The translations under genes and the position numbers were made by a program. A stretch of 64,000 nucleotides of DNA from Obrimoposthia wandeli (Eukaryota). The first letter of the stretch is position 1; each line of letters opens with the position of its first letter. Below the pieces are notes generated by a model, which was not told the DNA's origin, did no database searches, and saw only the letters and a program-made list of their open reading frames with translations. The stretch spans positions 1,240,001 to 1,304,000 of the forward strand of contig CDROCS010001312.1 of NCBI GenBank assembly GCA_977020255.1, in the 5' to 3' direction. This document shows, one piece after another, positions 5,123 through 5,480 of this stretch.

Positions 5123-5480
5123 ATGAAGTAAGTCAGTTTGAATTAATTAATCTAGTTCGATCGAGATAACAAAAATCAGGAGAAAACTACTCAGTTCGCG
5201 TTTAAATGGATTCTACAGTCTTGATCATATCACCTCATTGACTCGTCTAGGTGGATATGTATTCAATATACATTCATCTAATTTGGGTGGTGAACATTGG
5301 ATTGCAATACATGTTAAAGAAAAATAAATATTAGTTTTTGACCCATATGGGATATATTACCCTTATAAATTAGTATCTACAGTACTTGACTCTGGAAAGA
5401 AAGTACATTTTAGTAAGAAACATTATCAAAATGTTTTAACACAGTCATGTTTTCTTTGGTTAAAGCATACACAATAGATA
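5123..5480 (+). pseudogene. Adenain-like cysteine protease of E1, with a 28-bp intron at 5128..5155
   Basis: Spliced start MNSIEITKIRRKLLSSRLNGFYSLD; GGYVFNIHSSNLGGEHWIAIHV and FDPYGIYYP follow. TATAAACA lies 33 nt upstream of the ATG. Confidence 0.8.

Follow-up and report, generated by a model that had tools for sequence, protein, structure and literature searches.

Animal Polintons/Mavericks (adintoviruses) are described as elements with uninterrupted core genes and introns in cargo only: no introns were observed in intact vertebrate Mavericks (Barreat & Katzourakis 2021, PMC8097293), and in C. plicata Mavericks the core genes are intronless and introns occur in cargo genes (Widen et al., bioRxiv 10.1101/2022.07.12.499685), according to the portions of both papers available. 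Spliceosomal introns do lie inside dinoflagellate maverick-polinton-like elements, as introners that the available text describes as young, multi-copy and mostly acquired after integration (Gozashti & Corbett-Detig, PMC11957031), and in virion morphogenesis genes of mirusviruses, where the available text takes them as a sign of nuclear reproduction (Medvedeva et al., PMC12768974); mirusviruses, however, are unrelated giant viruses with many introns, some with homing endonucleases. The accessible portions of PMC12220804 concern group I introns only, and they make no mention of spliceosomal introns in Polinton core genes, nor do the accessible portions of bioRxiv 10.1101/2023.08.22.554363, PMC8502044 (Starrett et al.), PMC6431247, bioRxiv 10.64898/2026.07.28.741278 and bioRxiv 10.1101/809541. 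A literature search covering the accessible portions of main texts found no report of a conserved Polinton protease intron. The segment described here appears to be such an intron: about 40 nt, non-coding, at a single site in a core morphogenesis gene of a small integrating element. It would be old and diverged in sequence, and passed on together with the element within a clade associated with animals. The clade differs further from animal Polintons, as the available accounts present them, in a polymerase N-terminus with up to five introns (L006) and in the TBP-like gene and dual-specificity phosphatase of some members. Against this partly accessible literature, what appears new is a conserved spliceosomal intron in a Polinton core virion gene; introns in Polinton-like elements as such were already known.

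The window, by which we mean the whole stretch of 64,000 nt analysed, is an AT-rich animal locus crowded with Polinton fragments. In three copies, E1, E3 and E4, the protease gene opens with ATG-AA|GTAAG…TAG|T, on the plus strand in E1 and E3 and on the minus strand in E4. The features concerned are as follows, in window coordinates.

4402..5094, plus strand: E1 major capsid gene, 3' part, broken, with its stop at 5092-5094 (tblastn with the intact L001, L005 and L009 capsids)
5100..5126, plus strand: 8-codon ORF between the E1 capsid stop and protease start, its TGA overlapping the protease ATG (sequence)
5123..5127, plus strand: E1 protease exon 1, coding part, ATG and 2 nt (sequence)
5128..5155, plus strand: putative E1 protease intron, 28 nt, GTAAGT...CTAG, phase 2, the shortest of the set and in a decayed copy
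5156..5477, plus strand: E1 protease exon 2, with a single in-frame stop at 5325-5327 (aligns with E3 and E4)
29640..36611, plus strand: E3, an internally deleted Polinton (AGTAGT termini, ~490-nt TIRs at 88%, 5-of-6 target-site duplication)
34163..34796, plus strand: E3 major capsid gene, 3' part, its TGA overlapping the protease ATG as ATGA (tblastn, sequence)
34793..34797, plus strand: E3 protease exon 1, coding part (sequence)
34798..34839, plus strand: putative E3 protease intron, 42 nt, GTAAGT...GTAG, phase 2 (sequence)
34840..35176, plus strand: E3 protease exon 2, with a single in-frame stop at 34880-34882 and His, Asp, Gln and Cys motifs kept
45247..45580, minus strand: E4 protease exon 2, frame open, without catalytic His and Cys
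45581..45618, minus strand: putative E4 protease intron, 38 nt, GTAAGC...TTAG, phase 2 (sequence)
45619..45623, minus strand: E4 protease exon 1, coding part, its ATG overlapping the capsid TGA (sequence)
45620..46906, minus strand: almost complete E4 major capsid gene, interrupted by in-frame stops (tblastn, sequence)

The three sites are as the initial annotation had given them: segments of 28, 42 and 38 nt with the same flanks, and spliced starts MNSIEI, MNFKQV and MNTLEI that share LL at positions 13-14 and G at position 20. The motif ATGAAGTAAG occurs three times in the window, both strands counted, against 0.23 expected (0 of 100 shuffles gave three), and all three matches are these protease starts. 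When the segments are kept, translation of each gene is MK-stop. An ATGA overlap between capsid stop and protease ATG, reported for E3 and E4, is present in the sequence of both; the E1 capsid stop lies 28 nt upstream of the protease ATG, with no such overlap. All three window protease copies are decayed, and the 28 nt of E1, below the 37-43 nt of intact copies, may be decay-shortened or not spliced.

Assignment of these genes rests on alignment and profiles. The downstream frames of E1 and E3 aligned readily with E4 at 43-45% identity; E3 matches PF00770 at E 9e-4, under the Pfam cut-off, and neither E1 nor E4 gave a Pfam match. A 16-sequence protease profile matches ASFV pS273R (6lj9) at E 1.5e-5 and the adenovirus protease (adenain, 1avp) at E 6.7e-5, which identifies the genes, at the level of sequence, as adenain-type maturation proteases behind the major capsid gene.

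Relatives were sought among proteins and in metagenome DNA. A profile search of 1.84 billion representative proteins gave 2,935 matches, the best 57 of which were inspected. In four of the five closest 50%-cluster proteins (P0004, P0005, P0006, P0008) a hydrophobic extension with a terminal Ser directly precedes the aligned start, which is what translation through an AT-rich intron with an AG|T end would produce; P0007, also among the five best protein matches, starts at an internal Met. P0009, the sixth match, and P0164 from the same cluster have MNT as their direct start; their source is either intronless DNA or spliced RNA, and they probably represent genes that lack the intron and have an open protease frame. 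For more distant proteins among the best 57 of 2,935 the start is M[ND][ST], in the register to which splicing would return the gene. A word-index homolog search with the E4 protease yielded one match among two candidates, and successive IMG/VR scans confirmed 0 of 28, 0 of 20 and 4 of 20 stretches, the last four being distant proteases (29-31%) with long N-termini, outside the clade.

The scan of metagenome DNA confirmed 315 of 449 stretches, and the best 80 of the 315 were analysed. Twelve of these 80 loci (L001, L003-L006, L008-L011, L013, L014, L018), falling into 8 families, have a candidate intron of 37-43 nt at the same position and phase, with exon 2 open in all. The GT and AG positions that the initial annotation had read from three copies are thus conserved in further ones, the 12 of the best 80 metagenome loci and the 3 window copies together making 11 families. 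In 59 of the 80 a direct ATG stands 44-57 codons before the catalytic His and there is no intron candidate; an in-frame ATG at that distance occurs in 1 of the 15 intron-bearing copies, L008, and lies within the intron. L002 is cut inside the intron, with its 3' end visible; L015, L016, L024, L074 and L075 are cut by a contig edge, and L046, L051 and L064 show neither start. The start of L001 (1-480), which we take to resemble a bacterial mraY-type fragment, and a long homopolymer run in L009 (about 6650-6725) may be assembly artefacts. Metagenome copies also have a ATAAACAA stretch ~30 nt upstream of the capsid stop, which is absent from the window copies.

Across the 11 families the segment has the signals of a spliceosomal intron. 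All begin with GT, followed by A at +3 in 10, A at +4 in 11, G at +5 in 10 and T at +6 in 9, with AAG at +3 to +5 in 9; all end with AG, preceded by a pyrimidine in 10. YTRAY occurs near the 3' end in 8 of 11 against 4.7 in shuffled sequence (p~0.04, a weak signal). GC content is 7-25%, and lengths of 28-43 nt represent all three frames. Codon 2, which is Asn in most copies, Asp in L001 and Tyr in L009, is always cut after its second base. Read unspliced, 15 of 15 intron-bearing copies give Met-x-stop, ending at codon 2 or 3; joined, they start in the same register as the 59 intronless loci. The initial annotation had called the three intron sequences unrelated, and this extends to the larger set, in which mean interior identity is near background at 0.557 (11 families) versus 0.543 when shuffled (20 shuffle rounds peak at 0.554); recent, multi-copy and near-identical introns, by which introners are recognised, were therefore not found among these families. 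Between close relatives the intron can change faster than its flank: L004 and L005 differ by a 2-nt indel inside the intron versus 3 substitutions in 290 nt of exon 2, and L003 and L006 by 7 substitutions and 1 gap in 38 nt versus 20 substitutions in 290 nt. The counter-pattern also exists, the introns being identical in L013/L014 and in L011/L018 with exon 2 differing at 1 of 290 and 8 of 253 positions. Taken together, this comparative evidence strongly supports an old, position-conserved U2-type spliceosomal intron whose splicing we infer. Two other readings of the region were tried and rejected: an upstream ATGGA|GT donor, which would give introns of 97-112 nt in 7 copies, consists of capsid Tyr-Gly-Val codons and the donors are weak; and a ciliate-type code is contradicted by TAA and TGA both terminating the capsid gene, in different copies.

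The segment could also be no intron in practice, only a mini-ORF or spacer after the capsid stop, with the protease made from a downstream or non-AUG start or from a distant donor as in adenovirus late transcripts. In adenovirus, whose gene order is hexon-protease, the protease mRNA arises when a far-off leader is spliced to an acceptor ahead of a continuous ORF; the proteases described here, which match both adenain and ASFV pS273R by profile, likewise stand behind the major capsid gene. L001 moreover has an internal Met 39 codons before His, L008 has the in-frame ATG in the segment, and gene callers pick such starts (P0007, P0010, P0015). These alternative starts, however, vary between copies and would remove the conserved first helix or put another sequence in its place, and, in contrast to adenovirus, the intron here splits codon 2 and its donor is local: all 11 families have ATG-NN|GT and an AG acceptor, which when joined reproduce exactly the start of intronless relatives. 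We accordingly regard a non-intron reading as highly unlikely.

The history of the intron was examined on a capsid and protease tree built from the 28 protease rows, out of 58, for which 150 or more capsid residues were available; the capsids of intron-bearing elements are 47-61% identical to that of L005. Thirteen intron-bearing rows and the intronless L007 form one clade (100/99), with the intronless L019 and L017 outside it, and within the clade the window copies E1, E3 and E4 cluster together (99/94) and L001, with MD|S as its start, is the sister of L007, where MDS is uninterrupted (97/94). Intron presence requires 2 changes on this tree versus 9.5 for shuffled labels. A single gain in the ancestor of the clade is thereby well supported on sequence grounds, and a precise loss in L007 is likely; because a clade of intron-bearers only was not rejected by the AU test (p=0.068), loss in L007 is favoured, not proven. 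Whether by loss or by never having had the intron, L007 and L012 have by their sequence kept the protease frame open. The protease-only tree (58 rows, 109 columns) is mostly unresolved, with 7 label changes, of which starred branches force only 2; it pairs E4 with P0009 (97/89), and P0009 is a possible second loss. The claim that the intron is ancestral to the family must accordingly be narrowed: position and tree support it for one Polinton clade, and it fails for Polintons as a whole, in which distant relatives are intronless.

Repeated, recent insertion of introners or other mobile introns at one site after integration would be another route to the same distribution. Introners do invade maverick-polinton-like elements, mostly post-integration, in the account available (PMC11957031), and the present clade itself gains introns repeatedly. 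Against such insertions, the intron interiors are mutually unrelated, the distribution follows one clade at the cost of the few changes given above, and eleven arrivals on one base are implausible, so that we consider this origin extremely improbable.

That the clade gains short introns repeatedly follows from ~40-nt GT-AG introns in several of its genes, three of them in the window:

6163..6205, plus strand: E1 candidate intron, 43 nt, right after the polymerase N-terminal ATG (one copy only; splicing would give an M-N-C-x6-C start like that of L006)
16140..16176, minus strand: E2 TBP-like gene intron, 37 nt, phase 1 (shares its Gly codon position with E3; L005 has none)
30888..30931, plus strand: E3 TBP-like gene intron, 44 nt, phase 1 (sequence comparison)

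In the polymerase N-terminal region of L006 (1590-2243) removal of five introns of 42-46 nt gives an 888-codon frame with 0 stops; a dual-specificity phosphatase gene has a 46-nt intron in L001 (663-1263) and is also present in the window at about 15130-15500 (minus strand); and candidate introns lie in accessory genes of L007, L012, L015 and L016, including the two elements (L007 and L012) without the protease intron. Since similar introns occur in TBP-like, phosphatase, accessory and polymerase genes, the protease is not the only spliced gene. Its intron is nonetheless the only one shared across the clade. In the 17 clade loci examined, each of the genes for ATPase, integrase, minor capsid and major capsid, as well as the conserved polymerase part, is a single ORF where the sequence covers it. 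Intronless core genes, a descriptive Polinton trait and not a formal criterion, are thus not seen in the 15 protease copies and the L006 polymerase. The TBP-like gene (PF00352, E 2e-18 in L005) is found in the window at 16294-15847 (minus strand) and 30764-31217 (plus strand), in L005 at 1134-1607 and in L019 at 3766-4161.

The best explanation, and one we hold to be very probable from the sequence comparisons, is a U2-type intron gained once in protease codon 2, constitutively spliced, and kept vertically in one Polinton clade. Host Pol II would transcribe the element in the nucleus, and the host spliceosome would remove ~40 nt to give the family-typical Met-Asn/Asp/Tyr-Ser/Thr start; RNA that retained the intron would yield Met-x-stop only. 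Because every unspliced copy stops at codon 2-3, the protease is expected to need nuclear Pol II transcription and host splicing, the latter as the initial annotation had proposed. In 14 of 15 intron-bearing copies, and likewise in the intronless L007, L012 and L019, the distance between protease ATG and capsid stop is −4 to +4 nt, and since the tight spacing is found with and without the intron, the coupling of the two genes would predate it; it may work by re-initiation or by a promoter inside the capsid gene. Persistence of the intron is most likely due to only precise loss being viable and to introns at gene 5' ends being rarely lost, and a mild expression benefit may help. With an intron so near the capsid stop, nonsense-mediated decay of a shared transcript is not expected.

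A regulated choice between splicing and stopping would go further than constitutive removal: while the intron is retained, for instance in somatic or silent states or at an early stage of the cycle, no protease would be made, and splicing, possibly aided by re-initiation past the capsid stop, would hold the protease-to-capsid ratio low. Its appeal is that all 15 copies give Met-x-stop when unspliced, that this is the one intron shared across the clade in elements whose other core genes are single ORFs where covered, and that the donor is a near-perfect GTAAGT. The stop, however, follows automatically from phase 2 and GTAA/GTGA and therefore needs no selection; L007 and L012, and probably P0009 and P0164, have open protease frames and no intron; the interiors share no sequence; and other genes of the clade have comparable introns. 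We judge such regulation unlikely. The earlier suggestion that splicing gates the maturation protease is accordingly a weak one, and it seems doubtful that this widespread and apparently undescribed clade, some members of which encode a TBP-like factor, has made host splicing part of its morphogenesis programme, with the intron, 1-9 nt past the capsid stop, acting as a conserved switch that permits virion maturation only at times or places of host splicing. If it did, a splice-or-stop switch would separate a transposon phase from a virus phase.

Under constitutive splicing of a vertically kept intron, the intron would be sequence evidence for long-term transcription and splicing of these elements in host nuclei, and the clade a condensed archive of how introns are gained and precisely lost in a mobile element. 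In RNA data the splice junction would distinguish genuine transcripts from DNA, so that the timing of Polinton virion-gene expression becomes testable. Because surveys pick elements by ORFs and gene callers truncate or mis-start the protease of this clade, intact elements can score as defective.

The E4 family was also followed in contigs of four runs from one sample over 45150-46150. Each run yielded 6,448-7,489 contig records, and their summed depth was very large; such numbers show the family to be very abundant, though they do not translate into a copy number. Two differences fall in the E4 intron (45587 and 45606), with none at GT/AG and no indel, among the 40 of 74 differences listed. 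Six joints were found over the same interval, none removing the intron; library type is unrecorded for these runs, and contigs show presence, not absence. The window E4 copy differs from most family contigs at scattered places.

The Polinton character of the elements is supported by several genes and by structure, terminal repeats and target-site duplication being established for E3 among the three window copies. Upstream of the E4 capsid gene lie a small ORF, a minor capsid gene, an integrase gene, a PZ-like gene and an ATPase gene, extending to ~50222. The integrase is of retroviral type (rve, E 7e-5 in E3 and E 1e-12 in L005), the packaging ATPase matches Pox_A32 at E 5e-6, and the major capsid protein is a double jelly-roll type by its Atlas neighbours (0.97), of whose members 15-65% carry PF21738; the capsid profile gave no PDB sequence match. 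ORFs of 1304 and 1224 aa in L005 and L009, which we take to be protein-primed family B polymerases from their size, position and motifs, are represented by fragments in the window, and Pfam recognises in them an endonuclease VII stretch only and no PolB family. This HNH-type stretch lies at 53556-53831 in the window and at residues 629-663 in L005. In the available text, Jeong et al. (bioRxiv 10.1101/2023.08.22.554363) treat an HNH insert as a feature found only in pPolB2 of nematodes and oomycetes.

Two tandem minor-capsid-like genes are present in L005 (4351-6428) and L004, and one in L001 and L013. A conserved small ORF (MG-N…[NS]CC[NK]) overlaps the integrase 5' end in another frame in the window at 33747 (plus strand), ~49337 (minus strand) and ~13562 (minus strand), and likewise in L001 (3700), L005 (3277) and L013 (1777); its MG start presumably points to myristoylation. 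An accessory gene common to E2 (16563-17228, minus strand) and E3 (31415-31980, plus strand) has a weak match to BIR (inhibitor of apoptosis) at E 0.003, under the cut-off. A host rhodopsin-type GPCR gene with two GC-rich exons occupies 19622-28549, its nearest protein being P0165 (60-78% match); its 7.5-kb GT-AG intron (about 20039-27559), the only host intron found in the window, holds transposon debris including a Polinton polymerase fragment. Copies of Polinton terminal repeats at 29640-30130, 36070-36610, 39240-39540 and 43555-44665 include short, non-autonomous-looking pieces and a palindromic ~70-nt core, and a 35-nt tandem array lies at 42554-43008.
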